Origin: Candidatus Nanoarchaeia archaeon
GTDB taxonomy: Archaea; Nanobdellota; Nanobdellia; CSSed11-243R1
DNA length: 64,000 bases
Assembly: GCA_028713895.1 (NCBI GenBank)
Contig: JAQTNH010000001.1
Coordinates: 181,808 to 245,807, forward strand
Reading direction: 5' to 3'
Under the pieces are notes generated by a model. It saw nothing but the letters and a program-made list of their open reading frames with translations. It did no database searches and had not been told where the DNA came from. Made by a program: the position numbers and the translations under genes. Below, in pieces: positions 3,716 to 50,515 of the stretch (the stretch's first letter is position 1; the number at the start of each line of letters is the position of its first letter).

Positions 3716-4254
3716 CTGCGTATATCGGTTTCAAACTTCTCAATAAAGGACCGGATTTGGGTGAACCTGTCGAAGATTGACCTGCTCTTGTGGTATCTGC
3801 CCTGCTTCTTCTCGACGAGCCCGATGGCTTTGAGCTTGTTGAGGATTGAATAATAGCTTGAGACGCAGGAATTCCACTTCAAAGCCTTTTCAAGCACCTG
3901 CTTTTCAGCTTCACTAAGACTCAGCCTGCCTTTGCTGTGCATGCCGAGCAGGTTTTCATACGGCTTGCTTCCGCGCTTTGTGTCAGTGATGTTGTGCTTG
4001 AGGATTATCCCGTCGAGAAGCGCGCTGTCTTCTGCTGAAACCTGCTTTGTATTGAAGATTGTCTCGATGTAGCTCTTCCAGTTCGCAGCTGAAAGCCCGA
4101 GTTCTTTCCTGTCATAAATCAAACGCATGAGTTCGTATGCAGGCGCTGAAAGATTTTCATCCTTATAGAACACGTCTTTCAAAAAATCATTCAGGATTTC
4201 ATAATTGCTTGACCTGAACTTGATTAATGTCTTGTTTTTGTCTTTGATAGGCAT
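3712..4254 (-). CDS. Winged-helix DNA-binding protein (MarR/ArsR-like wHTH near the C-terminus)
   Basis: The segment SYYSILNKLKAIGLVEKKQGRY resembles a wHTH recognition helix plus wing. Confidence 0.5.
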   Translation of the reverse strand: MPIKDKNKTLIKFRSSNYEILNDFLKDVFYKDENLSAPAYELMRLIYDRKELGLSAANWKSYIETIFNTKQVSAEDSALLDGIILKHNITDTKRGSKPYENLLGMHSKGRLSLSEAEKQVLEKALKWNSCVSSYYSILNKLKAIGLVEKKQGRYHKSRSIFDRFTQIRSFIEKFETDIRS

Positions 4255-15389: not shown

Positions 15390-15589
15390 TTTTCACTCTG
15401 AAAAAGTTTAAAAGGCAGTATCCTCTCAATTTAAGACAGGGAAATGTTGATGGTTGAGGTGGAAAAATGAATTCTAAGGGAGAGAGCAGACTAAATTTAA
15501 TTCTAAACAGGTTCGGAGCGTCAAAAGCATCCGCATCACTGAAGATTTTCCTCGCACTCATCATTTTCGGCATAGCGTCAGCTTTCCTC
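15390..15589. repeat. Copy 1 of a ~200-bp duplicated promoter plus signal-peptide module
   Basis: Near-identical to 21856..22054. It carries the TATA box, the Shine-Dalgarno site GAGGTGG, and a first 41 codons identical between the two giant genes. Confidence 0.9.
15406..15412 (+). promoter_or_regulatory. TATA box (TTTAAAA) of giant surface protein gene 1
   Basis: AAAGTTTAAAAGG lies 55 nt upstream of the ATG. GAGGTGG at 15456..15462 is the Shine-Dalgarno site. Confidence 0.5.
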
Positions 15590-21862: not shown

Positions 21863-22054
21863 CTAATAAAGTTTAAAAGGGAGCATGCTCTATTCTAAAG
21901 ACAGGGAAATGTTGATGGTTGAGGTGGAAAAATGAATTCTAAGGGAGAGAGCAGACTAAATTTGATTCTAAACAGGTTCGGAGCGTCAAAAGCATCCGCA
22001 TCACTGAAGATTTTCCTCGCACTCATCATTTTCGGCATAGCGTCAGCTTTCCTC
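21856..22054. repeat. Copy 2 of the duplicated promoter plus signal-peptide module
   Basis: See 15390..15589. The TATA box is at 21872..21878. Confidence 0.9.
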
Positions 22055-36800: not shown

Positions 36801-37346
36801 TTAATCTTCTGTCGTATCCCCGATACAGCTTATAATCTCTATGCTGCCCTCTGCAATGGAGTTCATGCCCAGTAAAGGGATAACTTTTATTGTTTTTTTA
36901 TTGATAACCTGAAGTGAATAATCCGCATAAGGAAATTCCAGATAACCGGCTTGTTCAGACAGTTCCAATGCTTTAGCAAAATTTGGAAGCTGTATTTTAT
37001 ACTCCTTTTCAGAATCTGTTAATTCTTCAAGGAAGGGGCGATAAAAAAGAGTAAAACCATAGCTTATTTTTGATTTATATCCATGTTCAACAATTTCAGC
37101 AGAATATACTTGTACATAATGGTCATGTACTTGGCTCTCTATCTCCTCACGAGAACCCTTAACACTAAGGATATGCAGTTTTGGCGTTTCTTCCATAAAA
37201 GGAGCAAAAAATTCCTTATTGGCTTTTAGGTATTCACTAAAATCTGGCTTGTAGCCTGGATATCTCTCTTTTATTTTTTCCCTTATTGCTTCAATCCTCT
37301 TTTTTATGAAGTCTTTTACAAAAGTAGTATTTGTCATATCTAACAT
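36801..37346 (-). CDS. Conserved hypothetical protein, paralog A of 39976..40509 (C-terminal ISCIGDTTED)
   Basis: About 70% identity to the paralog on the opposite strand 2.6 kb away. Confidence 0.55.
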   Translation of the reverse strand: MLDMTNTTFVKDFIKKRIEAIREKIKERYPGYKPDFSEYLKANKEFFAPFMEETPKLHILSVKGSREEIESQVHDHYVQVYSAEIVEHGYKSKISYGFTLFYRPFLEELTDSEKEYKIQLPNFAKALELSEQAGYLEFPYADYSLQVINKKTIKVIPLLGMNSIAEGSIEIISCIGDTTED

Positions 37347-37420
37347 ATTGGAATAACCATTAATAAACTTATTTCACTGAAGAGGGGTTAACAAGTCAGT
37401 TAAACTTCGCTGAATTGCTG

Positions 37421-38209
37421 TTAATCGAAGTTTGAGAATACGAGTATGCTGCTCTCAGGATGTGAGTAACGAAGGTTCTTTTCTTTTAAAAAGTGCCCCC
37501 TGAGATAAGAATCCACAAACTGTTCAAGGGAATACCATGTTGCATCTTCTCCCTCGAAATGCTTGACTTTTTTGCCGAACTTAAACCGCAGGTCATAGGT
37601 GGTGATTGTGCCAGCCTCTTCAGTTTCAACAGACTCTTTCTTAGCCAGTGTTATTTCGCCTTTCAGGACATCATCAACATAGACCAAAATCTTATTTTTT
37701 TCGCTGATAGGTTCGACCTTTTTATTGGCGTAAAACTCTGAAAATGCATTTTTGCCCTTATGTTTTACAGCATCCAAAAAGTAATTCTCGGCTTCACTAG
37801 AAGAAGGCGCATTTTTGTGAGCCATCACTTTCTTCAGGCTGGGCATAAAATTTTCAGATGTCTTTACAATAGCATTCAAATCCCGTCCTCCAGTGACATG
37901 AGTCAATCTTAACTTTCCTGCTTTGGCTTTTTCTGCAAGCTTTATCAGCTTTTCCTCGTTTTTGGGACTAATTTTTTTATTGTAAGGCAGCCCTGGCTTT
38001 GGGCTGTCTTTCAACAAAGAAAAATACTGGTCAGAAGTCAACAGAAAGTCCAATGCATTATAATCAATGTCTGTCAGGGAGTCTTTGTATACATTGAGAC
38101 TGCGATACTCCTTGTTGAGATGGTACTCTTTCTGGATATCCCTAAATTTATCTGACTTTGGCTTTTTATCCAAAGGTACTCCAGTTACGTATTTTATTAT
38201 GTGTTCCAT
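37421..38209 (-). CDS. Hypothetical protein (262 aa from MEHIIKY)
   Basis: ORF 37421..38257 with a probable internal start. Confidence 0.45.
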   Translation of the reverse strand: MEHIIKYVTGVPLDKKPKSDKFRDIQKEYHLNKEYRSLNVYKDSLTDIDYNALDFLLTSDQYFSLLKDSPKPGLPYNKKISPKNEEKLIKLAEKAKAGKLRLTHVTGGRDLNAIVKTSENFMPSLKKVMAHKNAPSSSEAENYFLDAVKHKGKNAFSEFYANKKVEPISEKNKILVYVDDVLKGEITLAKKESVETEEAGTITTYDLRFKFGKKVKHFEGEDATWYSLEQFVDSYLRGHFLKEKNLRYSHPESSILVFSNFD

Positions 38210-38382
38210 GATATGTAGCCTAGCATATCGTGATTTATAAATCCAACTCGCCAGCAAAACTACGCTTATTTCTGTTAGAAGAAGTTCTTAGAAAAAAGCC
38301 TTAATCCTTAAACTTCAGAAGACTTTTAGGAATCGTGCCATAGCTCTTTGATTTACAGCTTCGTTAAATTTAAAAGCAAGTA

Positions 38383-38396
38383 TATACTGCAGGATA
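38383..38396 (+). promoter_or_regulatory. Palindromic box TATACTGCAGGATA (copy 2)
   Basis: Preceded by CGTTAAATTTAAAAGC (BRE/TATA). Here the GGTGGGGTTCT leader is replaced by GGTGCTATAAAG. Confidence 0.5.
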
Positions 38397-38410
38397 TAGG
38401 TGCTATAAAG

Positions 38411-38737
38411 ATGGGATACCTGAGGGTCATAACTGAATTGCATGCCAGGAGAGCAGGGCTTGTGCTGGAAGAAAGAGAACTGTTTGAAAACTTAGGCAGC
38501 TCTGTTGATATTGGACAAGCAGCAAAACGAGGAGCTTATTCTTTACAGATAACAGAAACCGTGCACAAAAGCGAATCAGGAAAAATAAGCATAGACGAGT
38601 TTGTGGACATCATAGACACCCAAAAATCTGCAATAGTGTTCAGCATGGAAGGCAGTAGAATCTTTGACAGGGCAGAAGCAGAAAGAACGATAGAGCAAGA
38701 GATTAAAAAGTATTTTGTGGATCCTTTAGTTCTTTGA
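38411..38737 (+). CDS. Hypothetical protein (109 aa)
   Basis: Start MGYLRV, 15 nt after the palindromic box. Confidence 0.45.
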   Translation: MGYLRVITELHARRAGLVLEERELFENLGSSVDIGQAAKRGAYSLQITETVHKSESGKISIDEFVDIIDTQKSAIVFSMEGSRIFDRAEAERTIEQEIKKYFVDPLVL

Positions 38738-38786
38738 GCGCTCTCGGGGCGAAAGATTTTTATCTGTATACAGTTTAGAAACCTGC

Positions 38787-39134
38787 ATGGAAACAACAAT
38801 GTGGATGATTTTGGGCGCAATAATTGTGATTGCCCTGATATACGCAGTTGTTTTGGTTCACAAAAACAAAAAACTGCTAAAGCCATGGACTGACGAAACA
38901 TGGATTGAATCAGGCGGAATGTTTCTTTTGATCGGGTATGTCCTTTCTTTGCTGGGCATTGAAATGAGCGTATTAATGGCTATTGGTTCAATTTACTTTG
39001 TAATCGGGTTTGTTAAAAAACATATTATAAAAGAGAAGAAACTGAATGAAAGGCAGAGAATGTATGCAACAATAGGAATAGCTGTATTGGTTGCGCTGTG
39101 TGTTATTATTTTCTTAATCTTTGTTGTCAAATAG
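38787..39134 (+). CDS. Membrane protein (3 TM)
   Basis: 115-aa hydrophobic ORF. Confidence 0.5.
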   Translation: METTMWMILGAIIVIALIYAVVLVHKNKKLLKPWTDETWIESGGMFLLIGYVLSLLGIEMSVLMAIGSIYFVIGFVKKHIIKEKKLNERQRMYATIGIAVLVALCVIIFLIFVVK

Positions 39135-39260
39135 AGTCATGAAACGCTTTCTGGCAAGTTCTTTTGAGTTCCAGCTCTCTCAGGGTAATTTATTGTCAAT
39201 ATTGAAGAAAAATAAAAGAAAAATAAGAAAAAAGTTGGGGAATGACTAAATTTGTTAAAA

Positions 39261-39356
39261 TTACTCTGTTTCTTCTTGTGTTTCTTCAGCTGCGTTCTCT
39301 GCTGGTGCTGCTTTTTCTTCTTCGTGCTTGTGTGCGCTCTTTTTTGGTCTTGCCAT
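39261..39356 (-). CDS. 31-aa micro-protein MARPKKSAHKHEEEKAAPAENAAEETQEETE
   Basis: Strong Shine-Dalgarno site AAGGAGGT 7 nt upstream of the ATG. The longer ORF-track version is rejected. Confidence 0.3.
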   Translation of the reverse strand: MARPKKSAHKHEEEKAAPAENAAEETQEETE

Positions 39357-39547
39357 GGTAGAACCTCCTTTGATTTGGGTTCGTGATTTCAGAAAAAGGG
39401 TATTAATACGCCTTTCGAAAGGTATATAGGGAGTTTTGGGGGCTAGGGGTGTGGTCGGGGTATTTGTTTTCAATATGGAAATTAAAGCAGAGAAAGGTTT
39501 ATAAGTGACTACTTGTTAGTAATGATTTAGTAGCGGGTGGACAAAAA

Positions 39548-39934
39548 ATGGGAAAACTGTCTGGAATACAAAAGATATTGGCGGAATCCTCTGATAAAGA
39601 GTTAAAAACAAGTTTAGCAAAAGGAAGGATAAAGATTCCAGGAGTAGAATTATCGGTAGATTTTGATGCAATGCTGGCGATAAAGGATATTAAATCCTTT
39701 TTAAAAAAGCCTCCAGAGGAATACTTGATATATATTTCTTGTCCGTCTTGTCCAAACCATGACATAGATTCATTCACATTAAGTTATAATTCAACATCAG
39801 ATACTTTAGAATACTTTTCGGAAGCAGATAAAGATTGTATTGATCTTGGTGAAAATGGATGCAAAAATTATAAGTCCTGCAAGATGGTTAAGCTGTACAA
39901 TGAGCTTAAGAAACAAGAAAGTTCTGAAAACTAA
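39548..39934 (+). CDS. Hypothetical protein (128 aa, Cys cluster CPSCPNH...C...C)
   Basis: ORF. Confidence 0.45.
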   Translation: MGKLSGIQKILAESSDKELKTSLAKGRIKIPGVELSVDFDAMLAIKDIKSFLKKPPEEYLIYISCPSCPNHDIDSFTLSYNSTSDTLEYFSEADKDCIDLGENGCKNYKSCKMVKLYNELKKQESSEN

Positions 39935-39975
39935 TTTTTTCTTAAAATGTTCGCTGAATATGGAGTGATGATAAA

Positions 39976-40509
39976 ATGAAAAAATCTGATACTACGTTTA
40001 TAAGAGAATTCATAAAAAAGAGAATCATAAGGATAAGAAAAGAAGTGAATGAAAGATATCCAAACTTTAAAACAGATTTTAGCGAATATTTGGCAGCCAA
40101 CAAGGAATTTTTTGCACCTTTCATGGAAGAGAAACCTGAGCTGCATACCCTCACTGTCAAAGGTTCTCGTGAGGAAATAGAAGACAAAGTTCGTGACCAC
40201 TACATACAAATGTATTCTGCTGAGATTGTGGAAGAAGGGCGCAAATCAAAAGTAAGCTATGGTTTCAGTCTGGTATATCGTCCTTTTATTGAAAGATTAA
40301 CAGACCCTGAAAAGGAGTATACAATTCAACTTCCAAACTTTACTAAAGCCATGGGGCTGTTGGATCATTTAAAATTTCCTTATGAGGATTATTCAGTTCA
40401 AGTCATCAAGAAAAAAACTATAAAGATTATTCCATTATTAGGCATAGAATCTCTTGCACAAGGAGGAATAGAAATTATAAGTTGTATCGGGGATACGACT
40501 GAAGATTAA
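39976..40509 (+). CDS. Conserved hypothetical protein, paralog B of 36801..37346
   Basis: Preceded by the repeat TTCTTAAAATGTTCGCTGAATAT. Confidence 0.55.
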   Translation: MKKSDTTFIREFIKKRIIRIRKEVNERYPNFKTDFSEYLAANKEFFAPFMEEKPELHTLTVKGSREEIEDKVRDHYIQMYSAEIVEEGRKSKVSYGFSLVYRPFIERLTDPEKEYTIQLPNFTKAMGLLDHLKFPYEDYSVQVIKKKTIKIIPLLGIESLAQGGIEIISCIGDTTED

Positions 40510-40706
40510 AAATGACTGTTAATTGCCTTAACCGATTTTTTATTTCAGTAATTCTTTTGGGTCCCAGCTCTCTTAGGGGCAGGTTTAAAGGGAATTCAGC
40601 GCAGGGTTTTTGAGTCGATTACTGGAAATAGTGGACAACACCCTAAATTTGATAAAGATAAACCCTCATTAGATTTTACTATTGCAAAAATTCGTGAGGT
40701 GATATT

Positions 40707-40940
40707 ATGGATCTTGCTATAAAATTCTGGAAAAACTGGCTTGAAGAAAAGAATCCAATGAAAAGATGGAGAATGATTGAAAAATTGCCTGTGGTTATAG
40801 AGATTACTGATTATATTGCACTCAACAAGATTTCTAAAAAAGAAAGATTAAGAACGTTTTCACCAACACTTGATTCGCTATTCGAAGATTTAAAAGATAC
40901 AATTTATAGCCTGGAGCTAAAGAAGAAGACAAGAAAATGA
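40707..40940 (+). CDS. Hypothetical protein (77 aa)
   Basis: ORF. Confidence 0.35.
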   Translation: MDLAIKFWKNWLEEKNPMKRWRMIEKLPVVIEITDYIALNKISKKERLRTFSPTLDSLFEDLKDTIYSLELKKKTRK

Positions 40941-41050
40941 AACGTAGCGCTGCAATAAAGAAGTCAATAAAAGGAGTTTTAATATGAATTGCATGATTGG
41001 TACAATTAAATGGACAAAAGGTATAAATAGATGTACTTATTAGTAAAATA

Positions 41051-41602
41051 GTGAACGGTATGGTACAACAGTTTAGATTATCCAAAGTTTCGGGAAAATT
41101 TATTGAGATACTTCTGTGGCTTATCGGGCTAAATCGCGAAGAAATCTATGTTTCAGAGCTAAGCAAGGAACTAAAAATGTCAAAGTCAACAGTCATAAAA
41201 TGGCTTGAGGAATTAACCAAATGGGAGCTTGTAACCGAACGAAAGCGCGGAAACATGCATTATTACAGGATAAATGGAGAAAACCCAATTATAAAGCAAT
41301 TCAAAATCCTGCAAAGCGTTTCTGAATTGACTCCGCTCATGAAAAGCTTGAAAGGTATGGCTGAAGTTTATTTGTTTGGCTCTTCAGCGCGAGGCGAGGA
41401 CAGGCCAGACAGTGATTATGACATTCTTGTTGTAACCAAACTTAATTCAAATGAAGTCTTTAAGAAACTTAAGAATGAGGACAGACTCAAAAACAGGAAA
41501 ATAAGCCTGCTTATAGTAAAACCCTTTGAATATGCAGACATGGCAAAACATGATCCTGCACTTTACCAAAGGATAGAAATAGACAAAATCAGGCTGGTAT
41601 AA
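41051..41602 (+). CDS. Minimal nucleotidyltransferase (MNT) with N-terminal wHTH
   Basis: NTase motif LFGSSARGEDRPDSDYDILVV. Confidence 0.75.
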   Translation: MNGMVQQFRLSKVSGKFIEILLWLIGLNREEIYVSELSKELKMSKSTVIKWLEELTKWELVTERKRGNMHYYRINGENPIIKQFKILQSVSELTPLMKSLKGMAEVYLFGSSARGEDRPDSDYDILVVTKLNSNEVFKKLKNEDRLKNRKISLLIVKPFEYADMAKHDPALYQRIEIDKIRLV

Positions 41603-42075
41603 TGGACATAAACGAAGCAAAAGATGAAGGACTAATAAGTGATTTGCCTAAAGAAGAAAATGTTACAGACATTGTTGAAAAAGAAATAAAGTCTGCAGAG
41701 TATGACTTAAGCGAAGCAAAAGAAGGGTTCAGCAAGGGCAAGACAAAATGGCCTGTAGTACAGGCCTATTATGTTATATTTCATGCTGCAAGAGCGCTGA
41801 TGTATAAGTTCAAGCTGAAGGAAATAAAGCATGAGGGAATAGTTGTTTTCCTGGAAGAGAGGGTAAAAGTCGGAAAACTGAGAAACGAGTTTGTGACAAT
41901 ATTCAAATCGCTTAAATCAACTAGGGAAGACTCAAACTATGACAGCGATTTCAGCGAAGAACGCGCAAGAAAATCAATAGAAAGCGCAGAAGAGTTTTTG
42001 AAAGAAATGAAGGCGCAGCTGAGCGAAAAAAAGGCCGGAAAAACCGGCAAACAGTTTGTTTTCTTGTTGTTGTAA
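41602..42075 (+). CDS. HEPN-domain protein, partner of the MNT (MNT-HEPN module)
   Basis: Start overlaps the MNT stop. The HEPN-like motif is TREDSNYD. Confidence 0.65.
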   Translation: MDINEAKDEGLISDLPKEENVTDIVEKEIKSAEYDLSEAKEGFSKGKTKWPVVQAYYVIFHAARALMYKFKLKEIKHEGIVVFLEERVKVGKLRNEFVTIFKSLKSTREDSNYDSDFSEERARKSIESAEEFLKEMKAQLSEKKAGKTGKQFVFLLL

Positions 42076-42159
42076 AAGTCCAATAATTCTTTGAGTTTAG
42101 GGCTCTTTGGGCAGGGTTTTTGGGCTAAAAAGGGCACGCACTTATAACGAACGCAAGAA

Positions 42160-42513
42160 TTATCTGTCCTTATACCCAAATTTTTTATTATATTTTGGAT
42201 GATCAATGATGTCTAAAACAAAAGCAATGATTTCTATTTCGCTTTCATTGTTTGTAAGAGTATAAAGCATGCGCCAAAAATTCGGGAGCTCTATCCTGAA
42301 AAGGTTTGTGATGCCATATTTTTGTTTGTACTCTTCAGGTATGAGCTTCTTGGCTATCGGGTCACCATAGTGAGGATTAGATTTCAGAAATTCTACTTTG
42401 TTGTTCAGAGCATTAAGAATTATCTTTTCTGTTTTTGAGCCAGGCGCCTGTTCATTGAGGTATTTGTAAACTTCCTCTGCTTCAGGCGAAAGTATGACCC
42501 TTATTATCTTCAT
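42160..42513 (-). CDS. RelE/YoeB-like toxin candidate
   Basis: 117-aa basic protein. The C-terminal IEIIAFVLDIIDH pattern resembles YoeB/Txe. It overlaps the upstream small gene by 4 nt. Confidence 0.4.
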   Translation of the reverse strand: MKIIRVILSPEAEEVYKYLNEQAPGSKTEKIILNALNNKVEFLKSNPHYGDPIAKKLIPEEYKQKYGITNLFRIELPNFWRMLYTLTNNESEIEIIAFVLDIIDHPKYNKKFGYKDR

Positions 42514-42788
42514 AGTTCCACACCTGCTGCAATTGCCCTCTTAAGGTTCTGATTTGTATTGTGTATCCATGTTATGCCTTTCATTGTAATCAATATTTTA
42601 TTGCTTTTTTCAAGATATTCAAGAATTATTTTAAGGGTGTTGTGATTAATCTGTTTGGGAAGCCTTCGCTTAAGTTCAGCTATTGTAATTGCGCTTTCAT
42701 CCATGTTTGTCAGGACATTTTCCACCATGAAGACAGTATTAAGAGTAGGTGAATGTTCCAATTTTTCCATTTGAACCTGTTTTGCCAT
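42510..42788 (-). CDS. Putative antitoxin / small DNA-binding protein
   Basis: Start MAKQVQM. It is coupled to the toxin-like gene. Confidence 0.35.
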   Translation of the reverse strand: MAKQVQMEKLEHSPTLNTVFMVENVLTNMDESAITIAELKRRLPKQINHNTLKIILEYLEKSNKILITMKGITWIHNTNQNLKRAIAAGVEL

Positions 42789-42920
42789 ATTTATCACTCC
42801 GTATCATTTAGTTATTAATAAATAAGTAATAGTTACTATTTTATATAGTTACTCTTCGTTTGAGGTTCCAGTAATTTCTTGAGTCCTGGGGGCACGCTTC
42901 GTTAACTTTAAAAACCAATA

Positions 42921-42934
42921 TATACTGCAGGATA
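42921..42934 (+). promoter_or_regulatory. Palindromic box TATACTGCAGGATA (copy 3)
   Basis: Flanked by the TATA box TTTAAAAA (42907) and the leader motif (42940). Confidence 0.5.
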
Positions 42935-42939
42935 TAAGT

Positions 42940-42950
42940 GGTGGGGTTCT
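42940..42950 (+). promoter_or_regulatory. GGTGGGGTTCT leader motif
   Basis: See the motif family. Confidence 0.55.
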
Positions 42951-42973
42951 AGAATTAAATAAGCTGATGTTAA

Positions 42974-43717
42974 ATGAAAATCAAATTTCATGGCGTATCA
43001 AACGGCTATGCTTACGAAAACCAAAATTTGGGGTGTATTTGTTTAGATGATAAAATCCTTTTAGACTGTGGCATAACAAGTTTTCCACGACCTTATTTTG
43101 ATAGCTTAGATGCATTATTTTTGTCTCATGGACATAAGGATCACATAGTTGGTATAAGCTCGCTTACATTGGGCTTAGCTGTTGAAACAGACAGAAAAAC
43201 AAGAAGGGATAGGGATTTTTGCATCTATGTTCCTGCAGGCATAAAAGACAAAATAGAAGACCGTATTGATAAAACATACAAAGACAAAGTAAAGATATTT
43301 GAAAAGAATCCAGGGGATAAATTCAGATTTTTGGATGAATATGACATAAAAACTGTCAAAGTAGAGCACAAGGGAGATTGTTTAGCATACAGATTTGAGA
43401 AGGATGGAAAAAGTTTTGTTTATACTGGCGATGCTGTACCTTCTCAAGAAGTAATTGACCTTTCAAAAAATGTTGATGTGCTGATACATGAAGCCAGCTT
43501 TGTAAATAAGTTTAGAGAAGTGGCAAATAGCTGGAAACACTCGACTTCTGAACAAGCAGCAGAGGTTGCACAAAAGTCTGGTGCAAAAACACTGATTTTA
43601 ACATTAATCTCACCTCATGTAAGGCTGAATAATATGGAAGAATACCTGACTGAAGCACAAAATGTCTTTCTTGGCAAAATTATTATTGCATACGAAGGCC
43701 TGGTTTATGAGTTATAG
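42974..43717 (+). CDS. Metallo-beta-lactamase-fold hydrolase
   Basis: HxHxDH motif (HGHKDHIVG) and downstream His/Asp residues. Confidence 0.8.
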   Translation: MKIKFHGVSNGYAYENQNLGCICLDDKILLDCGITSFPRPYFDSLDALFLSHGHKDHIVGISSLTLGLAVETDRKTRRDRDFCIYVPAGIKDKIEDRIDKTYKDKVKIFEKNPGDKFRFLDEYDIKTVKVEHKGDCLAYRFEKDGKSFVYTGDAVPSQEVIDLSKNVDVLIHEASFVNKFREVANSWKHSTSEQAAEVAQKSGAKTLILTLISPHVRLNNMEEYLTEAQNVFLGKIIIAYEGLVYEL

Positions 43718-43787
43718 TGATGCTGTTTGATAATCCAGTAATTCTTTGAGTCCTGGGGGCACGGTTCGTTAACTTTAAAAACGACTG

Positions 43788-43801
43788 TATACTGCAGAAT
43801 A
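43788..43801 (+). promoter_or_regulatory. Palindromic box TATACTGCAGAATA (copy 4)
   Basis: TATA box at 43774 and leader motif at 43808. Confidence 0.5.
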
Positions 43802-43807
43802 TAGGTT

Positions 43808-43818
43808 GGTGGGGTTCT
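43808..43818 (+). promoter_or_regulatory. GGTGGGGTTCT leader motif
   Basis: See the motif family. Confidence 0.55.
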
Positions 43819-43832
43819 AAGAGGGAAAATAA

Positions 43833-44258
43833 ATGAATGGTGATAAGATGGATTACAGGCTGCCTAACAGGTATGTTAAAGCTACAGACCACAACAAAGA
43901 ACTGGAAGTGAATATGGACGCGGAAAGAATTCTTAAAATATGGTGTTCTGGCTGCAGCAAAAATAAGAAATGCGATTACATGCCAACATTGGTTTCAATG
44001 ATTGGCGTCACTGAAGTTGATAAAGCAGACGAGGAAAATTTGATGGAAACTATAACATTCATATACAGGCCTGATATGGACAGCAGCAGAGCTCCCTTTT
44101 GCAAGAATGCAGACGAGAAATCGATTGTACGTTTTGAGGAAGCTTCTGAAAGATTACGCAAGGAAATCGAGCTTAAAGAAAATTACAAGCGATCCCAAAA
44201 AGATAAATATCTTGGCTTAGAGATTAAAATAATTGGAGACACAGTAAACGATGAGTAG
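43833..44258 (+). CDS. WCSGC-motif protein, paralog 1 (141 aa)
   Basis: Shares the YRLP..YV...WCSGC...C...C pattern with the next gene. Confidence 0.55.
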   Translation: MNGDKMDYRLPNRYVKATDHNKELEVNMDAERILKIWCSGCSKNKKCDYMPTLVSMIGVTEVDKADEENLMETITFIYRPDMDSSRAPFCKNADEKSIVRFEEASERLRKEIELKENYKRSQKDKYLGLEIKIIGDTVNDE

Positions 44259-44268
44259 GTGGGGTTCT
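44258..44268 (+). promoter_or_regulatory. GGTGGGGTTCT leader motif (starts at the stop codon of the previous gene)
   Basis: 13 nt upstream of the ATG at 44282. Confidence 0.5.
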
Positions 44269-44281
44269 TGGAGTGGGATAA

Positions 44282-44704
44282 ATGAGCAATGACAAAAAAA
44301 ATTACAGACTGCCTGAAGGGTATGTTGAAACTGACGGAGATTGGGGAGTAGACTATAAAACAGCAGTTAATGTGCTCAGGAACTGGTGTTCTGGCTGCAA
44401 GAAAAAGGAAGATGGAAATTGTGAAACTGTGATAGACCTTGTAGGTTTATTGAGTATGGAAGAAATCCCTGGCGTAGCTTATGAGTTCATGACACGAATC
44501 AAGCCTAAGAAGGGTGGAAGAAGCATTCTTTACTGCACAAAGGCTGACAGCCTATCAATTGCATATTTTGAGGAAAGGCAGAGGGACTTAGAAAGAGAAA
44601 AAAGAAAATTAAAGGCTGCTATCGATGAAGGCTTTGCCGAAGCAGAAAAAGAATTAGCAAAAGGAAGAGAGGCAAGACTAAGAAAGTTGGGATTAAAGAA
44701 ATAG
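44282..44704 (+). CDS. WCSGC-motif protein, paralog 2 (140 aa)
   Basis: Paralog of 43833..44258. Confidence 0.55.
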   Translation: MSNDKKNYRLPEGYVETDGDWGVDYKTAVNVLRNWCSGCKKKEDGNCETVIDLVGLLSMEEIPGVAYEFMTRIKPKKGGRSILYCTKADSLSIAYFEERQRDLEREKRKLKAAIDEGFAEAEKELAKGREARLRKLGLKK

Positions 44705-44721
44705 ATGGAGAGTGATGAAAG

Positions 44722-44976
44722 ATGGAAAAACCATATCAAATAAAACCATATCAAGTTTTACAAGAATATCAAAGTTTACACGAAGGAATCAAACCTTTAA
44801 AACATGCTTCGAAGTATGCCCCAATAGTAGTAGAACTGGGAGAAACTGTAACTTTAAGCAGTTTAGGCATAGACACTTCCAGTAGACTGGCGTTTCTATG
44901 CAGCTTGCCTTCAGATACGGTAATGCATACAGACAGAGATGGACATGTTACATGCACATTCTCTATAGAGAAATAA
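44722..44976 (+). CDS. Hypothetical protein (84 aa)
   Basis: ORF. Confidence 0.4.
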   Translation: MEKPYQIKPYQVLQEYQSLHEGIKPLKHASKYAPIVVELGETVTLSSLGIDTSSRLAFLCSLPSDTVMHTDRDGHVTCTFSIEK

Positions 44977-44998
44977 ACAAATCTTGAGAGGGATATAA

Positions 44999-45481
44999 AT
45001 GAACAAAACGCTAACTGAAATTTTAAAAAAGGACCCGAAGGATGTAACTATCCAAGAAAAAGAGTGTCTGGATTTAGAAGAAATCAGTAAGTTAGCTGAT
45101 AGATTTAATAAGCAGTACGAAAGTCTCATACAGCAAGCCAATGAGCCATACAAAGACAAGGAAAATGTAAGTTTGGTGTTCTGCGATGGAAAACTTGTTA
45201 AGGCTTACACTATGCAACGTTATGATATCCCTTTTGATGAGATTTCTAAAATTGAACAAGAACAGGGCAAAGCATGTTATGTAGTTGAGATGATAAACAA
45301 ACCGTCTGAAGACGACATCCGTATTTTTGAACCCCAAACAGGCATAAGAGACTCCTACAAAAACCTTAATGATGCATATAAAAAAATGGGTGACGATATG
45401 CATACTTTTGAGCAGGAATTGCGTGAAGGAATCAAAGAAGTGCGTAAGGAAGTTAAATCGCTTGAAAAGAAGCAAAAATAA
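44999..45481 (+). CDS. Hypothetical protein (160 aa)
   Basis: ORF. Confidence 0.5.
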   Translation: MNKTLTEILKKDPKDVTIQEKECLDLEEISKLADRFNKQYESLIQQANEPYKDKENVSLVFCDGKLVKAYTMQRYDIPFDEISKIEQEQGKACYVVEMINKPSEDDIRIFEPQTGIRDSYKNLNDAYKKMGDDMHTFEQELREGIKEVRKEVKSLEKKQK

Positions 45482-45525
45482 AATTTTCTTAAAATGTTCG
45501 CTGAATATACATTAAACGAAGTTTT

Positions 45526-45828
45526 TTAATGCGATTTTTGATGTTTTTTATGGTTTTTTTGAACCTTTATTATTACTTTGCTTGCTTTTCCTGCTTCCAA
45601 GGCTGGCAAAAGGTGCGACAGGAACTGTTCTGCAGTCATCTTTCGGACTGTGCCATTGGTGGTCTGAGTCCATTGGCCTTTGACTTTCTTGTATTTCTGT
45701 TTCCAGCCGCTTTTCTTGATAATGAGATAGATCGTGCATTCGTCGTTCTTCATGATTTTAGCTCGTGTTAGACACACACGTTTACTTGTTTTGACTCTGC
45801 TTGCAGGGACAATGTTTTTGCCTGGCAA
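45526..45828 (-). CDS. Hypothetical basic protein
   Basis: ORF. The real start may be the internal MKNDEC. Confidence 0.3.
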   Translation of the reverse strand: MPGKNIVPASRVKTSKRVCLTRAKIMKNDECTIYLIIKKSGWKQKYKKVKGQWTQTTNGTVRKMTAEQFLSHLLPALEAGKASKVIIKVQKNHKKHQKSH

Positions 45829-46127
45829 GTCCTGTTTGTGCAGTCTGAGTCATCATTGCAGTAATCAGTGCAAATTCCTATGCTTTCATTTGCTTTTTGA
45901 GTGCAAATGCCTTCAGCGAAATTCAGGCATTCAACATAGCATATCTGGCCTGAGCTGCATTCATCATTTATGTGGCATTCTCCTGGATTATGCACATAGA
46001 CATGGTGCTCAACAGCTGTGAAATTTGGCTTAACAATCATAACGAGAGCGACAAATGCAAGAACAATAACAGCAAAAAGAATGTTTCTAGAACAAAAGAT
46101 GCATTTGAAATCTAATTTTTTAGCCAT
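45768..46127 (-). CDS. Secreted Cys-rich small protein (signal anchor plus about 12 Cys)
   Basis: Start MAKKLDF preceded by GGAGGG. The mature part is NPGECHINDECSSGQICYVECLNFAEGICTQ...CTDYCNDDSDCTNRTC. Confidence 0.5.
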   Translation of the reverse strand: MAKKLDFKCIFCSRNILFAVIVLAFVALVMIVKPNFTAVEHHVYVHNPGECHINDECSSGQICYVECLNFAEGICTQKANESIGICTDYCNDDSDCTNRTCQAKTLSLQAESKQVNVCV

Positions 46128-46150
46128 AGTTATCCCTCCAAAACATCCTG

Positions 46151-46303
46151 TCAAAGCTTGAATCTTTTTGGCTTCTTTTCTGTTTCCTCTTCTAATACAA
46201 GAGCGCCTACATAGCCGCATTTATTACATTGGTATTGGCCAAAATTGCCGCCCATGTAGAGGTCTATCTCTTTTGAGCGGCATTTTGGGCACATCTTTGC
46301 CAT
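46151..46303 (-). CDS. 50-aa zinc-ribbon micro-protein (CPKC...CNKCGY)
   Basis: Not in the ORF track. The arrangement TAATATG couples it to the upstream gene. Confidence 0.45.
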   Translation of the reverse strand: MAKMCPKCRSKEIDLYMGGNFGQYQCNKCGYVGALVLEEETEKKPKRFKL

Positions 46304-46304
46304 A

Positions 46305-46544
46305 TTATTTGCAGCAATTGTTGTTGCAGCTGCAGTGGCCTTTCTTCATCAGTGCAAATGCTATCACTAGCAATGCAAGAATCCACCATGCGATGCCATC
46401 AAAGATGATTCCTTTTGTGTTAAGTATCCACACAAGCAAGCCTGCGAAGACAAGTCGCGCTAAAAAGCCGCCGTGGCAGCCGCAGCACATTCCTTGCCAG
46501 GACCACACCATCATTTTTGGTTCAATTTTTGATTTTTTTGCCAT
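46305..46544 (-). CDS. Small membrane protein with CCGCHGG and CSCNNNCC motifs
   Basis: Start MAKKSK preceded by GAGGTG. Two TM helices. Confidence 0.5.
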   Translation of the reverse strand: MAKKSKIEPKMMVWSWQGMCCGCHGGFLARLVFAGLLVWILNTKGIIFDGIAWWILALLVIAFALMKKGHCSCNNNCCK

Positions 46545-46587
46545 ATTTTTACACCTCAAAGTTTTAAGATTTGCTCGAATCTTTTAA

Positions 46588-46854
46588 TCATGATTCGCGT
46601 TCAATTTCGCGGGCTTTTGTTTTTACGTCTACTACAACTTCGCGCTCTTTGTTAAGCACGCCAGTAAATTCTTCCAAATGTTTTATGCCTATGTCTGCCT
46701 GGTTTTTTGCATCCTCAAGAAGCTTTAAATTGTTCTTTTCAATAGCGCGATCTATTATAGTTTTGATGGTTTTGAGATTATTTGCTGCTTTTTTAATCTC
46801 TTCAAAGCCTATTCCCTCAAGCGCCTGAAGGTTCTTTGGCAGTTCTTTTGGCAT
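46588..46854 (-). CDS. Hypothetical protein (88 aa, start MPKELPK)
   Basis: ORF-track call trimmed to the Shine-Dalgarno-supported start. Confidence 0.4.
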   Translation of the reverse strand: MPKELPKNLQALEGIGFEEIKKAANNLKTIKTIIDRAIEKNNLKLLEDAKNQADIGIKHLEEFTGVLNKEREVVVDVKTKAREIERES

Positions 46855-46858
46855 GTAA

Positions 46859-47575
46859 TCACCCTTTTTTAATTTTGTAGTATATTTTCTTTCCAATGGC
46901 TTCTTTTTCCAGGGCGCCCAGCTCTGCGAGCCTGTTCAGCCTGAATGAAGCTGTTGAACGGGATAAATTGATATAGTCAGCGAGCTGGTTTGCTGTGACG
47001 CGCTCCTGGCGGCCGACCCAGTCAATAACTTCCTTGTCCTTGATTGTGAGCTGGCTTATGTGAGTTATTGCGCTGTCCAGAGTCTGTGAGGAAACTCCTT
47101 TTTCAGCTATTTCGTCCTTTGTTCGCTGCAATAGGTCAAGTATAAAGTCTAATTTCTCTAAATCATTGAGTTTTTCAAGGCGATGGTCCATTGACTTAAG
47201 AACATGATTTAATTCCTCTAAAATCTGGGAATTTATGATTTTAACCTGTGATAAAGGATGCTGCTGCGCTGCCTTTATAGTGTCTTCCCACTGCTTTATT
47301 GCTATGTGCGAAGCTTCTTCCTGCAGCTTTAGCTTTGTTGGCTCGTGTTGAACAGTTGATTGGCGCTCCTGCCTTATTTTGGCTAAATCTGCCTCAAAAT
47401 CATGTTTTAAGTGTTCGTCAACAGGTTCGTCAGTTGTTGATTGCTGTTCAACAGAATTTTTTTGCTCGTCTAGAAGGTAGGGCCTAACTATTTTTTCAGA
47501 ATCCATCTTTTCTACCGGAAGGCTGTCTTCAGGCTTGCTGCTGAAAAGACGTTTTAAAGCGTCTAATATCCCCAT
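46859..47575 (-). CDS. Transcriptional regulator with C-terminal wHTH and N-terminal coiled coil
   Basis: The wHTH segment is LADYINLSRSTASFRLNRLAELGALEK. Confidence 0.6.
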   Translation of the reverse strand: MGILDALKRLFSSKPEDSLPVEKMDSEKIVRPYLLDEQKNSVEQQSTTDEPVDEHLKHDFEADLAKIRQERQSTVQHEPTKLKLQEEASHIAIKQWEDTIKAAQQHPLSQVKIINSQILEELNHVLKSMDHRLEKLNDLEKLDFILDLLQRTKDEIAEKGVSSQTLDSAITHISQLTIKDKEVIDWVGRQERVTANQLADYINLSRSTASFRLNRLAELGALEKEAIGKKIYYKIKKG

Positions 47576-47639
47576 TTCACCTGCTTTTTAAAGGCAAGGG
47601 ATGTTTATTAAGCTTTCTATGGCGCATTTTAGGGGTTCG

Positions 47640-47940
47640 CGCGCGAGCGCACCTGTTGGCGCAGTTCCAACACATCCAACACTTTAGTCAACAACTTCGA
47701 CACATTCGACACATCATCCAACACATTCGACAGTCAACACATCCAACACTTCCAACATATGTTGAACACATGCTTAATTTGCCTATTTTTTCCTTCAAAT
47801 TACGTGGTTTTAGTGTTCAACAGATTCGTCAAAAACCCAACAGATTCAACAGTCAACACATTCGACAGTCAACAAGTTCGACAACAAGTTCGACACATTC
47901 GTCAACAAGTTCGACAGATGGTCCAACACATAGATTAGAG
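47640..47940. repeat. Iteron-like degenerate direct-repeat array with a 9-bp inverted repeat
   Basis: More than 20 copies of short units (TTCGACAC/G, ATCCAACAC, GTCAACAC/AAG). The inverted pair is GTTGAACAC (47762) and GTGTTCAAC (47815). Confidence 0.6.
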
Positions 47941-48108
47941 CTGAAGTATAGTATTACATTATTATTCAATATTGAAATCAAATAAAGTGAGATGGGTTTT
48001 TAGGAGTAAAAAGAGAGGGTGGGCCTAAGTTGGTAAGAGGTGAGAATAAGGGGTCAAAAAGTGAGGGTTCTAAGAGAGATGTTTGAAAAGAAGGCAAAAA
48101 TGGCGAGA

Positions 48109-48456
48109 TTAACTGTTGTTTCGTTTAATTAAGTCTTCTACAATTAGTTTTGGGTCAATATCTTTGTTTTTCAGGCGAAACATGCGCATCCTGATTCCTG
48201 TTGACTCGTAAACGGCTTCTGGTTCGAGCATTTCCACAAAATTCTGGAGGTATTTGTCAATCAAGTAGCTTACTGCATAGGGTTTCAGGCTTGTATTCTT
48301 TGCTATTTTGCGTATCCAGACCCAAGCTTCCTGTGTTTTAAGGTATGCAAGCACCTTGAAAACCTTATGCATTGGGTCGCGTTCAGATGGCTGACGCTGC
48401 TTTCGAACTGACTTTAACTCGAATTCTTTGGCGCAGTGTGGACAAACGACCTTCAT
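48109..48456 (-). CDS. Zinc-ribbon (CPHC) plus wHTH-like small regulator (115 aa)
   Basis: Start MKVVCPHCAKEF with the Shine-Dalgarno site AGGTG. The ORF-track N-terminal extension is rejected. Confidence 0.5.
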   Translation of the reverse strand: MKVVCPHCAKEFELKSVRKQRQPSERDPMHKVFKVLAYLKTQEAWVWIRKIAKNTSLKPYAVSYLIDKYLQNFVEMLEPEAVYESTGIRMRMFRLKNKDIDPKLIVEDLIKRNNS

Positions 48457-48548
48457 ATTTACACCTGTAAAAAGATAAGAATATGGTAGAATATAAAGCT
48501 TATTATTAGTCAAATTGCCTAATAGCTGTGTTTTAATGCATTTTAGCG

Positions 48549-48851
48549 TTATCCAGTTGTTTTCATTACAGCTGTACAAACATGACTTACGCACTTGCAG
48601 GAACCTGCGCCGCAATCCATTGTTCCATTACTGCATTCCATTGTGCAAAAAGTATCCATACAATTTGGCGTTTGGTCAACTGGAACACAGGAAGTTGAAT
48701 GACAGCACTGGGCTTCAACGCAATCTAAATCTTCAGTGCATTCAGGCTGCTGGGCTTCGATTTGATTTAAAACAGGTTCGTACTTATTAAACAAAAGTAA
48801 GGCTGCAACCAAAGCAACCACGATTACAAAAAAAGCTAACCAAATTTTCAT
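48549..48851 (-). CDS. Secreted Cys-rich small protein, paralog of 45768..46127
   Basis: Signal anchor, then QQPECTEDLDCVEAQCCHSTSCVP...CKCVSHVC with about 16 Cys. Confidence 0.55.
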   Translation of the reverse strand: MKIWLAFFVIVVALVAALLLFNKYEPVLNQIEAQQPECTEDLDCVEAQCCHSTSCVPVDQTPNCMDTFCTMECSNGTMDCGAGSCKCVSHVCTAVMKTTG

Positions 48852-48883
48852 AATAAAAAAGAAACATTCAAAGAATAAAAAGA

Positions 48884-49336
48884 TTATGACGCAGAGGATT
48901 TACCCTGTTTTTCAGGCTTAAGCGATGGAAGCGGTATTGGCGAAGGAAGCCCTACTTTTGCTGCCTGTTCAATCGCTTCTATCTGGCTTTTATTCATTGC
49001 CGCGTTAAGTATCCCAACCATCAGTTTGGGCTCAAGTTTTTTATTCTTTTTCCATTCATCAACCACTTTGCTAATCTCGTCTTTAGTGTTCACATAAACT
49101 ATTTCGCCTTTAACCAAAATCTCTCCGAGGTTCTGGTCTTTTGGCTCTTTCAGTTCATATTTGACAGCATAAACAAAGTCTATTATGACGCCATTATTTT
49201 CCCTGCCAAAAGATTTAAGCTCGCGAACATCATCAATTTTAATGTCGTTTGAGCGTGCACTTGGCTTTATAATATCCGCTTTGATAATATTTCTAACCGC
49301 TTTGGTTTCTCTTAATGTAATATTAACAATTGGCAT
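48884..49336 (-). CDS. Hypothetical protein (150 aa)
   Basis: ORF. Confidence 0.45.
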   Translation of the reverse strand: MPIVNITLRETKAVRNIIKADIIKPSARSNDIKIDDVRELKSFGRENNGVIIDFVYAVKYELKEPKDQNLGEILVKGEIVYVNTKDEISKVVDEWKKNKKLEPKLMVGILNAAMNKSQIEAIEQAAKVGLPSPIPLPSLKPEKQGKSSAS

Positions 49337-49424
49337 TTTGTATCACCAGCTTGAGCAAGCTTTTGAGAATTTATAAAATTAACTAAATCAGCAGATTTTT
49401 AAATGAGCCATTTCTTGCATTTCT

Positions 49425-49435
49425 GGTGGGGTTCT
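49425..49435 (+). promoter_or_regulatory. GGTGGGGTTCT leader motif
   Basis: TATA box TTTTAAAT lies 26 nt upstream. The ATG is at 49449. Confidence 0.55.
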
Positions 49436-49448
49436 AGATGGTGAAATA

Positions 49449-49715
49449 ATGGCTTACAAACAGAAAAAAATACTCAAAAATGAAACAGCTGAAGTTTTTT
49501 GCAATGATTTCAGGAATATTCTGAAGGTGTCAACCAGCATTGATGATGCTTTTGACAAGGTTGATGTTTACCAGCATAACAGGGATGTGGCGTATACAGA
49601 AGCAATGGAACTCGAAGAGCGCGAGAATTTCAAGGCTAAACTTGCGCTTGGAGGGATAATGCTCGGAATCGTTGCTGCAAGTTTAATCGGCTACTATGTA
49701 TACATAAATCTATAA
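49449..49715 (+). CDS. Small C-terminally TM-anchored protein (88 aa)
   Basis: ORF with a C-terminal hydrophobic helix. Confidence 0.5.
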   Translation: MAYKQKKILKNETAEVFCNDFRNILKVSTSIDDAFDKVDVYQHNRDVAYTEAMELEERENFKAKLALGGIMLGIVAASLIGYYVYINL

Positions 49716-49933
49716 ACACCAGAACCCAAAAGATAAAAAACTTGGACATGCTTAGTAAATGGGGCTGATAAAATGGTGTACAGGATACAAAATGCAGTGA
49801 ACAGAGTTGAGGACATACTTGAAAATTTTGATACATATACTAGTTTAGCTGCGGTAATCCAGAACGTGCCTACCACTAAAAGGTATCAAACCAAACACAT
49901 GTCAGACTATTTTTTTGAAAAAATTGCGAATGT

Positions 49934-50515
49934 TTAGGACGAAATCGAAGGAATCCTATTTTTAAGTTTCTGCACAGCGAAAGCCATTGTTCCGCCCACA
50001 AGTGCTGTGACAAGCTGAAGCATGCCCATATTCATGAATGCCTTTGGAATTATTGCGAGCGAGACGAGAACAAATGCTGCGCCAAGGATAACTGCTGTCT
50101 TTGCCGCAGATGCTATCCATAGAACAGGGAAAAAGCGCAGATTATGCTGCAGCTGAAGCCATTTGAATGCCAGAACAATTAGCGCGTTTCCAAGCCAAAT
50201 GAATGGAAGGGCATAAACCAGGTACATTGTAAATCCGCCGAACACATATCCGCCTGCGATAATGCCCAAACTTGGGAAAAGAATTACCGGAAGAAGCTTT
50301 ATTCCGCGCAGGTTAAACGCCGCCAAAACAAGAGCCATGTTCACGAGAGAGCCGACCAAGAACTGCGGCTGCTTCAGGAACATTGGAATAAAAAACGCAA
50401 GCGCAGAATAAACTGAAAGCTCAATCAGCTCCTGAATATTACTTATCTGGAACTCCTGTTTATTGAAGATGCTGTGAACATAATCGCAGAATCCTGAAGT
50501 TTTATCATTTTTCAT
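49934..50515 (-). CDS. Polytopic membrane protein, possibly an ECF-transporter S-component-like protein
   Basis: 193 aa, 5-6 TM helices. The family assignment is uncertain. Confidence 0.5.
   Translation of the reverse strand: MKNDKTSGFCDYVHSIFNKQEFQISNIQELIELSVYSALAFFIPMFLKQPQFLVGSLVNMALVLAAFNLRGIKLLPVILFPSLGIIAGGYVFGGFTMYLVYALPFIWLGNALIVLAFKWLQLQHNLRFFPVLWIASAAKTAVILGAAFVLVSLAIIPKAFMNMGMLQLVTALVGGTMAFAVQKLKNRIPSISS

Follow-up and report, generated by a model that had tools for sequence, protein, structure and literature searches.

Positions 47640–47940 of the window (the whole 64-kb stretch of DNA analyzed here) contain an array of approximately 22 nine-base units that resemble binding sites and lie 5′ of a winged-helix regulator gene. 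The array is probably the cognate autoregulatory multi-site operator of the 238-aa winged helix-turn-helix (wHTH) protein that this gene encodes (probability of roughly 0.6, based on sequence comparisons). Because the array is deeply conserved in front of a gene that is found only in Nanoarchaeia, the regulator's own operator, and not the origin of a mobile element, is most likely. The first-pass annotation had offered two readings, a multi-site operator and the replication origin of an integrated element. The former is favored by the constant orientation of the array before the orthologues, by its contact with or enclosure of the BRE/TATA elements and by units that change together with the recognition helix; the latter is not supported. 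A literature search yielded no description of this array.

The array consists almost wholly of short plus-strand units of the forms TTCGACAC, TCCAACAC and GTCAACA. Of the 123 occurrences of the hexamer YCRACA in the whole window, 21 are on the plus strand within 47640–47940, where the minus strand has only two. These units span positions 47664–47932, and outside the array the hexamer appears only about 0.5 times per 300 nt, with no second 300-nt interval of comparable density in the 64 kb. TCRACA peaks at 14 copies per 300-nt interval against a mean of 0.36, and its maximum on the other strand is 2. The two-unit pattern TGTYGRNNNTGTYGR, with a 9-nt spacing, has 10 of its 13 window matches in the array (0.12 expected by chance). 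The array is thus present where it had been annotated, far beyond chance. In the sense of the 238-aa gene, plus-strand YCRACA reads TGTYGR, and the nine-base unit consensus is A-T/A-G-TGT-T/C-G-G/A-A. The orientation is overwhelmingly direct, with 21 units against one or two inverted ones.

The units are arranged in two blocks of 10 contiguous units each (Table 1), with start-to-start spacings of 9, 12 or 7 nt. In the distal block, TGTCGAA and TGTTGAC units alternate with phasings of 9 + 12 = 21 nt and 7 + 9 nt. Because of the 9/12/7-nt phasing, the array is not simple low-complexity sequence, and the positional periodicity whose lack would have refuted the first-pass annotation is observed. 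Chance or low complexity as the source of the array is ruled out by the counts, the phasing and the conservation. A hidden coding repeat was also rejected: the minus-strand frames are all interrupted, the only open reading frames are repeat artefacts, and the 7-nt spacings break the frame. The inverted repeat that had been described around an AT-rich spacer is found; it arises because a single unit stands in the opposite orientation, and the same unit also forms a perfect palindrome, CAACATATGTTG, at 47753–47764. The flanking genes, which had been called divergent, are both on the minus strand (48109–48456 and 46859–47575) and are therefore in tandem, so that in their direction of transcription the array follows the Zn-ribbon gene and precedes the gene of the 238-aa wHTH protein.

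Table 1. Features of the array region in window coordinates, listed in the sense of the wHTH gene
Feature	Position	Strand	Description
CTCACTTT box 2	48058–48065	−	family consensus AACTCTCACTTTT
CTCACTTT box 1	47984–47991	−	family consensus AACTCTCACTTTT
Palindrome TTCAATATTGAA	47965–47976		directly 3′ (gene sense) of the array-proximal CTCACTTT box
Distal repeat block	47813–47932	−	10 contiguous TGTYGR units (47837–47928), plus TGTTGA (47817–47822) and a TGACGA variant
Inverted repeat flanking the spacer	47757–47825		arms 47757–47769 and 47813–47825, 13 nt, 92% complementary, 43 nt apart
AT-rich spacer	47770–47812		43 nt, ~70% A+T, between the two blocks
Proximal repeat block	47664–47769	−	10 contiguous TGTYGR units (47667–47757), TGTTGG-rich, plus an inverted unit at the distal edge
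Putative core promoter of the wHTH gene	47604–47618	−	BRE-like AGAAAGC, then TATA-like TTAATAAA (47604–47611), 29–36 nt before the ATG
Shine-Dalgarno-like AGGTGA	47577–47582	−	just before the ATG at 47573–47575
Gene for the 238-aa coiled-coil/wHTH protein	46859–47575	−	presumed array binder
Intragenic unit-like sequences	47413–47455	−	TGTTGA, TGTTGAC and antisense TCAACA; codons 41–55 of the wHTH gene, variable linker

The comparison set comprised 23 GTDB species loci and additional metagenome loci, approximately 30 related loci in all. In these loci, the densest TGTYGR stretch always lies directly 5′ of the wHTH orthologue and in the same orientation. Clusters of at least three units are found only 5′ of the gene, save a few in its own 5′ coding part, across 286 kb of loci and the 64-kb window. 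The 150-nt upstream regions contain 46.9 TGTYGR units per kb, and all other DNA of the loci 1.5 per kb. Arrays contain 20–25 units in the clade of the window and 5–12 units in more distant clades, and most clades have a single block of 50–140 bp. Over 26 loci, the units are spaced by 9 nt (n = 129), 12 nt (n = 61) or 7 nt (n = 16), and the recurrent 9 + 12 = 21-bp composite is TGTCGAAcTTGTTGACgaa. Direct units outnumber inverted ones by 190 to 13 across all loci, and dyads are restricted to L038 and to single positions.

The array blocks are more conserved than the neighboring coding DNA. The distal block is 95–96% identical to those of both L001 and L003, and the proximal block is 96% and 87% identical, respectively; by comparison, identity to L001 and L003 is 91% and 76% in the wHTH coding sequence and 70% and 66% in the gene of a 150-aa protein (p150). 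The inverted repeat is kept in L001 and rearranged in L003. L006, L007 and L009 have equivalent AT-rich spacers of 45–100 nt whose sequences are not conserved, and more distant clades lack a spacer. The only locus without units, L027, has an N run (a scaffold gap, at about 3923–3933) at the exact position of the array, which suggests that the repeats can break assemblies. The array is a strongly selected, class-wide cis-element that is paired with a lineage-specific regulator. Unit-like sequences also occur within the wHTH gene of the window, and similar intragenic clusters were observed in the 5′ coding regions of L014, L017 and L028. These sequences may serve as operator sites downstream of the promoter, or they may derive from the array and have been recruited into the coding region.

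The gene order of the close relatives, with the array kept, is p150, (100 aa), 115 aa, an ~0.5-kb gap, wHTH and 88 aa. Genes for HisRS, a ParA-like protein, a T2SSE ATPase, a tRNA deacylase and p150 lie near the wHTH gene in distant relatives as well. The locus is a vertically conserved chromosomal neighborhood. The genes downstream of the wHTH gene encode products of 88, 84 and 50 aa without a family match. The syntenic p150 gene (48884–49336, minus strand) is located 5′ of the wHTH gene in 21 loci. Its product is modeled with a SecB-like fold (pLDDT of 68.6), and the top Foldseek matches are SecB of Haemophilus influenzae and Escherichia coli and Rv1957 of Mycobacterium tuberculosis (E 3e-4). 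A chaperone gene next to that of a regulator whose disordered linker is long is reminiscent of toxin-antitoxin-chaperone systems, but no toxin was seen.

Between the array and the wHTH start codon, a putative core promoter is assigned from its sequence only. The window version, AGAAAGCTTAATAAA at 47604–47618, corresponds to the conserved element cGAAAaGTTAATAAAta, which also follows the last unit in L006–L009 and L035, and the TATA-like part matches the plain TTTAAAA/TTTATAAA type of the other window promoters. In the clade of the window, the last array unit adjoins a conserved cGAAAaGTTAATAAA. Other clades have the TATA-like run within the array; two to three units separate this run from the ATG, and the final one overlaps the Shine-Dalgarno sequence (TGTTGGGGTG...ATG). 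The units thus overlap or adjoin what is probably the core promoter of the regulator's own gene, and their placement at the BRE/TATA and Shine-Dalgarno elements is as would be expected for a factor that controls the wHTH-gene promoter. The true start of the protein is the conserved MG[ILF]LD. Upstream of it, nine-base units read ATG-TGT-TGG in L010, L012, L013 and L015, and because the units contain ATG, predicted proteins are given N-termini that run into the array (MCWGV..., MCWNRCWNKCW...), as is also seen for protein P0042.

The 238-aa protein is identical to a protein of a 'Candidatus Nanoarchaeia archaeon' (DPANN) MAG. It begins with an amphipathic helix and a disordered linker; the conserved HPLSQVKIIN helix comes next, followed by a coiled coil and, at the C-terminus, a wHTH domain. 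In the family alignment, the N-terminus is conserved as MG[ILF][LF]DxLKKLF, the Lys/Glu-rich linker is variable and the W...HPLSQVKIIN helix is invariant. A coiled-coil segment comes next and then the C-terminal winged helix with a near-invariant recognition helix, SRSTAS[FS]RLN[RK]L, which reads SRSTASFRLNRL in the protein of the window. The amphipathic character of the N-terminus is expressed in a median hydrophobic moment of 0.53, a value reached by a median of 4% of shuffled sequences. In the AlphaFold model, confidence is limited to the wHTH domain and the preceding helices. A fold search with this model returned generic ArsR/SmtB, MarR and CodY-type regulators, and the N-terminal two-thirds, a part that is modeled with low confidence, had no specific match. 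The Pfam and NCBIfam matches are weak and generic (MarR_2, HTH_IclR, ArsR, Sta1 and Lrs14). The protein is predicted to be a DNA-binding wHTH protein of the ArsR/MarR/TrmB type.

All homologues with a named source (n = 83 homologues in total) are from DPANN/Nanoarchaeia. When 1.84 billion representatives were searched exhaustively with a profile, only approximately 77 clusters reached E <= 1e-10, and the family is therefore small and lineage-specific. A 2026 preprint (10.64898/2026.05.13.725050) describes a wHTH regulator without a name, OG0000296, as a Nanobdellota-wide single-copy marker. OG0000296 may or may not be the same family as the 238-aa protein.

The sequence of the units co-varies with that of the recognition helix. 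In the main family, the SRSTAS[FS]RLN helix is nearly invariant wherever the units are TGTYGR, and the 27 loci with this helix contain 190 TGTYGR units versus 7 units of the TGTTWAA type. The divergent subfamily B (three loci) has the helix SRSNASLKLN (full form ISRSNASLKLNKL), and its 150-nt upstream regions contain no TGTYGR but 15 TGTTWAA/TTWAACA units (ACGTGTTAAACACG; changed unit TGTTAAAC). Within the main family, TGTCGA units number 4–10 when the helix has Phe and 0–2 when it has Ser, a trend that is confounded by phylogeny. This co-variation, which comes from three loci of one divergent subfamily and few independent lineages, gives the best reason to regard the encoded protein as the probable reader of the units. 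It bears directly on a very unlikely alternative in which the units are bound by a different protein, such as the 115-aa Zn-ribbon protein or a global factor, and the wHTH gene is merely a regulated target. The 115-aa gene (48109–48456, minus strand) is syntenic in the clade with the largest arrays, but it is missing from most loci that still carry the array; the units change along with the wHTH helix, and no second array was found in the DNA examined.

The anatomy of the array, its conservation, its proximity to the promoter and the co-variation of helix and unit are direct observations; for binding itself, its cooperativity and the sign of regulation, we infer the following model. Each nine-base unit would serve as one binding site for the wHTH domain. 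The 238-aa protein, dimerized or oligomerized through its coiled coil, would load head-to-tail onto contiguous units that are 9 or 12 bp apart. The resulting extended nucleoprotein filament would reach the BRE/TATA elements of the protein's own gene and set its transcription, that is, autoregulation. An operator is favored by the linkage of array and gene, the phasing, the promoter contact, the selection on the units, the co-variation, the wHTH fold and the lack of an RNA-structure signal. Several points weigh against it. At least 20 sites far exceed the needs of autoregulation. MarR/ArsR-type dimers usually recognize dyads, but the units are repeated directly, and the dyad-symmetric dimer site typical of these regulators is absent. 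The units could be read by another factor. Finally, an operator accounts for neither the CTCACTTT boxes nor the long upstream non-coding stretch.

The CTCACTTT boxes belong to a second motif (consensus AACTCTCACTTTT) of which nearly every locus (L006–L040) has 2–12 copies, spread over 0.2–2.4 kb on the 5′ side of the array. The copies are always in the sense of the gene, also in the divergent subfamily B. In the 64-kb window, CTCACTTT has only four copies, two of which are the boxes of Table 1. The array-proximal box is followed by a T/A-rich run and then by the palindrome, which is kept as TTCAATATTGAA or TTCAATATGGAA in L003, L006–L009, L027 and the subfamily B locus L036. A role of CTCACTTT as a general promoter element was rejected, given its four copies in 64 kb and the plain TTTAAAA/TTTATAAA type of the other window promoters.

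Because the sites are so many, so exactly conserved and laid out in two blocks, which is more than autoregulation needs, a centromere-like or tethering site is kept as the main rival or extension of the operator, although it is unlikely. In such a site, the filament would be a structural complex comparable to ParR-parC, TubR-tubC, omega-heptads or Noc/RacA that marks one chromosomal locus and couples it to a partner or, through the N-terminal amphipathic helix, to the membrane, with autoregulation as a by-product. Many sites in two blocks that flank an AT-rich core recall parC and tubC, and the array of two blocks of 10 lies 5′ of the gene of a candidate adaptor and reaches its promoter, which the adaptor would regulate. 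There is one array per 64 kb and none elsewhere in the 286 kb of loci. The conserved, amphipathic N-terminus of the protein, MG[ILF][LF]DxLKKLF, precedes a disordered linker rich in Lys and a coiled coil, and it would fit a tethering function. The family is widespread within a single archaeal class and does not occur outside it. However, a cognate NTPase of the ParA, ParM or TubZ type in the same operon is lacking: no partition NTPase adjoins the array in the window or in five other ±10-kb contexts, and a ParA/MinD- or ParA/CbiA-like gene is found 6–13 kb from the locus, beside the T2SSE ATPase gene. Moreover, most clades have 5–12 units in one block of 50–140 bp, which is the size of an operator, and membrane binding by the N-terminus is only presumed. 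A broader form of this idea is distinctly improbable. The array and the protein would then form a Nanoarchaeia-specific, near-universal chromosome-organizing device in which the protein polymerizes on 5–25 phased units at one fixed chromosomal locus and, by its N-terminal helix, tethers this locus to the membrane or to a partner. Such a device would be the archaeal counterpart of Noc/RacA or ParR-type complexes without a dedicated NTPase, and the CTCACTTT boxes would extend the landmark.

Known partition systems offer the closest parallels to such a site. In type III plasmid and phage partition, the winged-helix adaptor TubR binds iteron clusters in tubC, which contains approximately seven repeats of 12 bp, and works with the TubZ GTPase from the same operon. 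The array resembles this system in that a winged-helix protein gene lies beside two direct-repeat clusters upstream of it, which are presumably coated cooperatively. It differs from tubC in its approximately 22 units of 9 bp, in the lack of an adjoining NTPase and in its chromosomal, vertically inherited location, and there is no detectable sequence relationship. ParR of plasmids R1 and pSK41 and omega of pSM19035 are ribbon-helix-helix adaptors with a ParM or ParA partner. Like the array, their sites have short direct repeats in two sets of about 10, without gaps between units, around a promoter-like core, and the same sites act as operator and assembly platform. Unlike these plasmid systems with a partner protein, the array is chromosomal and archaeal, its candidate binder is a wHTH protein with a coiled coil, and no partner gene is seen. 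Lrs14/Sta1, TrmB and ArsR/MarR-type regulators have the same class of DNA-binding fold and sites on their own promoters, as in the operator model. They use one to a few dyad sites, whereas the array has 5–25 phased direct repeats, and the 238-aa family differs further by the coiled coil before its wHTH domain, its N-terminal amphipathic helix and its restriction to Nanoarchaeia. Plasmid iterons with their Rep proteins are similar to the array in having many short direct repeats in non-coding DNA beside a winged-helix gene; they are typically 17–22 bp long and helically phased, unlike the 9-bp units here; the 238-aa protein has no Rep-like match, and the locus is not on a mobile element.

An integrated mobile element was rejected as the source of the array. 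The array locus is syntenic across genera, and no integrase or Rep gene was found among the scanned window open reading frames or within ±10 kb in the related contexts. Homologues of the 238-aa protein were absent from PLSDB, INPHARED and IMG/VR, and the protein itself had no Rep match in Pfam/NCBIfam or in the fold search. Scans of metagenome and viral contigs for TGTYGR(N3)x4 are neutral on this point: among the matches listed, 240 loci were fetched, and no family member is encoded in them. Toxin-antitoxin genes and a low-GC stretch are located 5–10 kb from the array.

A chromosomal replication origin, in which the units and/or the CTCACTTT boxes would be initiator sites and the AT-rich spacer an unwinding element, is highly improbable. 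It would explain why the non-coding region 5′ of the gene, at 0.4–1.6 kb unusually long for a compact genome, contains two kinds of oriented repeats, and in the clade of the window two units inverted to each other flank the AT-rich spacer. Archaeal origins, in which ORB/mini-ORB elements surround a DNA unwinding element close to orc1/cdc6, share the long intergenic region with oriented repeats and, in this one clade, the AT-rich segment bordered by an inverted pair. However, no Orc1/Cdc6, Rep, integrase or other replication-associated gene was found among the scanned large window open reading frames or within ±10 kb in the related contexts, and no Pfam family of an Orc1/Cdc6 or WhiP-like initiator was present among the neighbors (±10 kb) in L029, L031, L032, L033, L034 and L035 or the large window open reading frames. 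The suggested likeness to clusters of origin-recognition boxes was not borne out either. ORB and mini-ORB elements have a dyad consensus of the TTCCA..GGAAA type. A search for TTCCASWGGAAA with up to two mismatches gave 32 matches versus 25 expected, with none clustered at the locus, and the TGTYGR units and CTCACTTT boxes have no dyad. Both blocks are direct repeats in the same orientation and are not inverted around the spacer, despite its one inverted unit pair. Most clades have no spacer, and their units lie on the promoter and the Shine-Dalgarno sequence. The cumulative GC skew, calculated for the 64 kb only, turns at about 45.5 and 56 kb, where the gene strand switches, and not at the array at 47.7 kb. 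The wHTH domain matches transcription regulators and not the winged helices of Orc, Cdt1 or Rep, and the co-variation of unit and helix points to the local regulator as the binder.

The least probable of the alternatives is an element that acts as RNA, in which the array would be transcribed as a long 5′ untranslated region or non-coding RNA and its repeats would serve as a protein sponge or as upstream open reading frames. The TATA-like run after the array-proximal CTCACTTT box could drive read-through, the last units must fall in the leader in some clades, and every ATGTGTTGG unit carries an AUG. However, the many upstream AUGs would harm a leader, BRE/TATA elements stand between the array and the ATG in the clade of the window, and the partner protein has a DNA-binding fold. 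A structured RNA or a known RNA family was rejected on the lack of a thermodynamic or structural signal (z values of −0.3 and −1.9) and of an Rfam match.

Several other features were observed in the window. The sequence GGTGGGGTTCT has eight exact copies versus 0.4 expected, all on the plus strand (10675, 28554, 31574, 34240, 42940, 43808, 44258 and 49425). Six of the eight lie 12–32 nt before the ATG of plus-strand genes, one of them in a 23-nt intercistronic spacer, and GGTGGGGTTCT may be a leader or translation-related motif. Two paralogous genes, 36801–37346 (minus strand, 181 aa) and 39976–40509 (plus strand, 177 aa), are 71% identical, inverted and 2.6 kb apart, and their products had no match to any known family. 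The region of approximately 37000–50000 has a lower GC content (0.34–0.41 versus 0.42–0.47) and contains an MNT/HEPN pair (41051–42075) and a ParE-like pair (42160–42797); no integrase was found. Two adjoining giant open reading frames (15467–21826 and 21932–27601, plus strand) encode 2119 and 1889 aa and have near-identical 80-nt leaders.

On balance, an operator of direct repeats, unusual in its size, is the preferred reading of the array, and a chromosome-organizing site is a less probable one. DPANN archaea have tiny genomes and almost no experimentally characterized regulators. Here, a lineage-specific wHTH protein is paired with a cis-element that can be read from sequence, a pairing backed by the co-variation of helix and site, which provides a concrete DNA motif and a testable protein–DNA pair for organisms that cannot be cultured alone. 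The succession of a SecB-like gene, CTCACTTT boxes, the unit array and the wHTH gene is a recognizable landmark of Nanoarchaeia. In practical terms, the ATG-bearing units mislead gene callers into MCW... N-termini, and the array may break assemblies. If the array is a tether or a centromere, it would bear on chromosome organization and segregation in the smallest archaeal cells.
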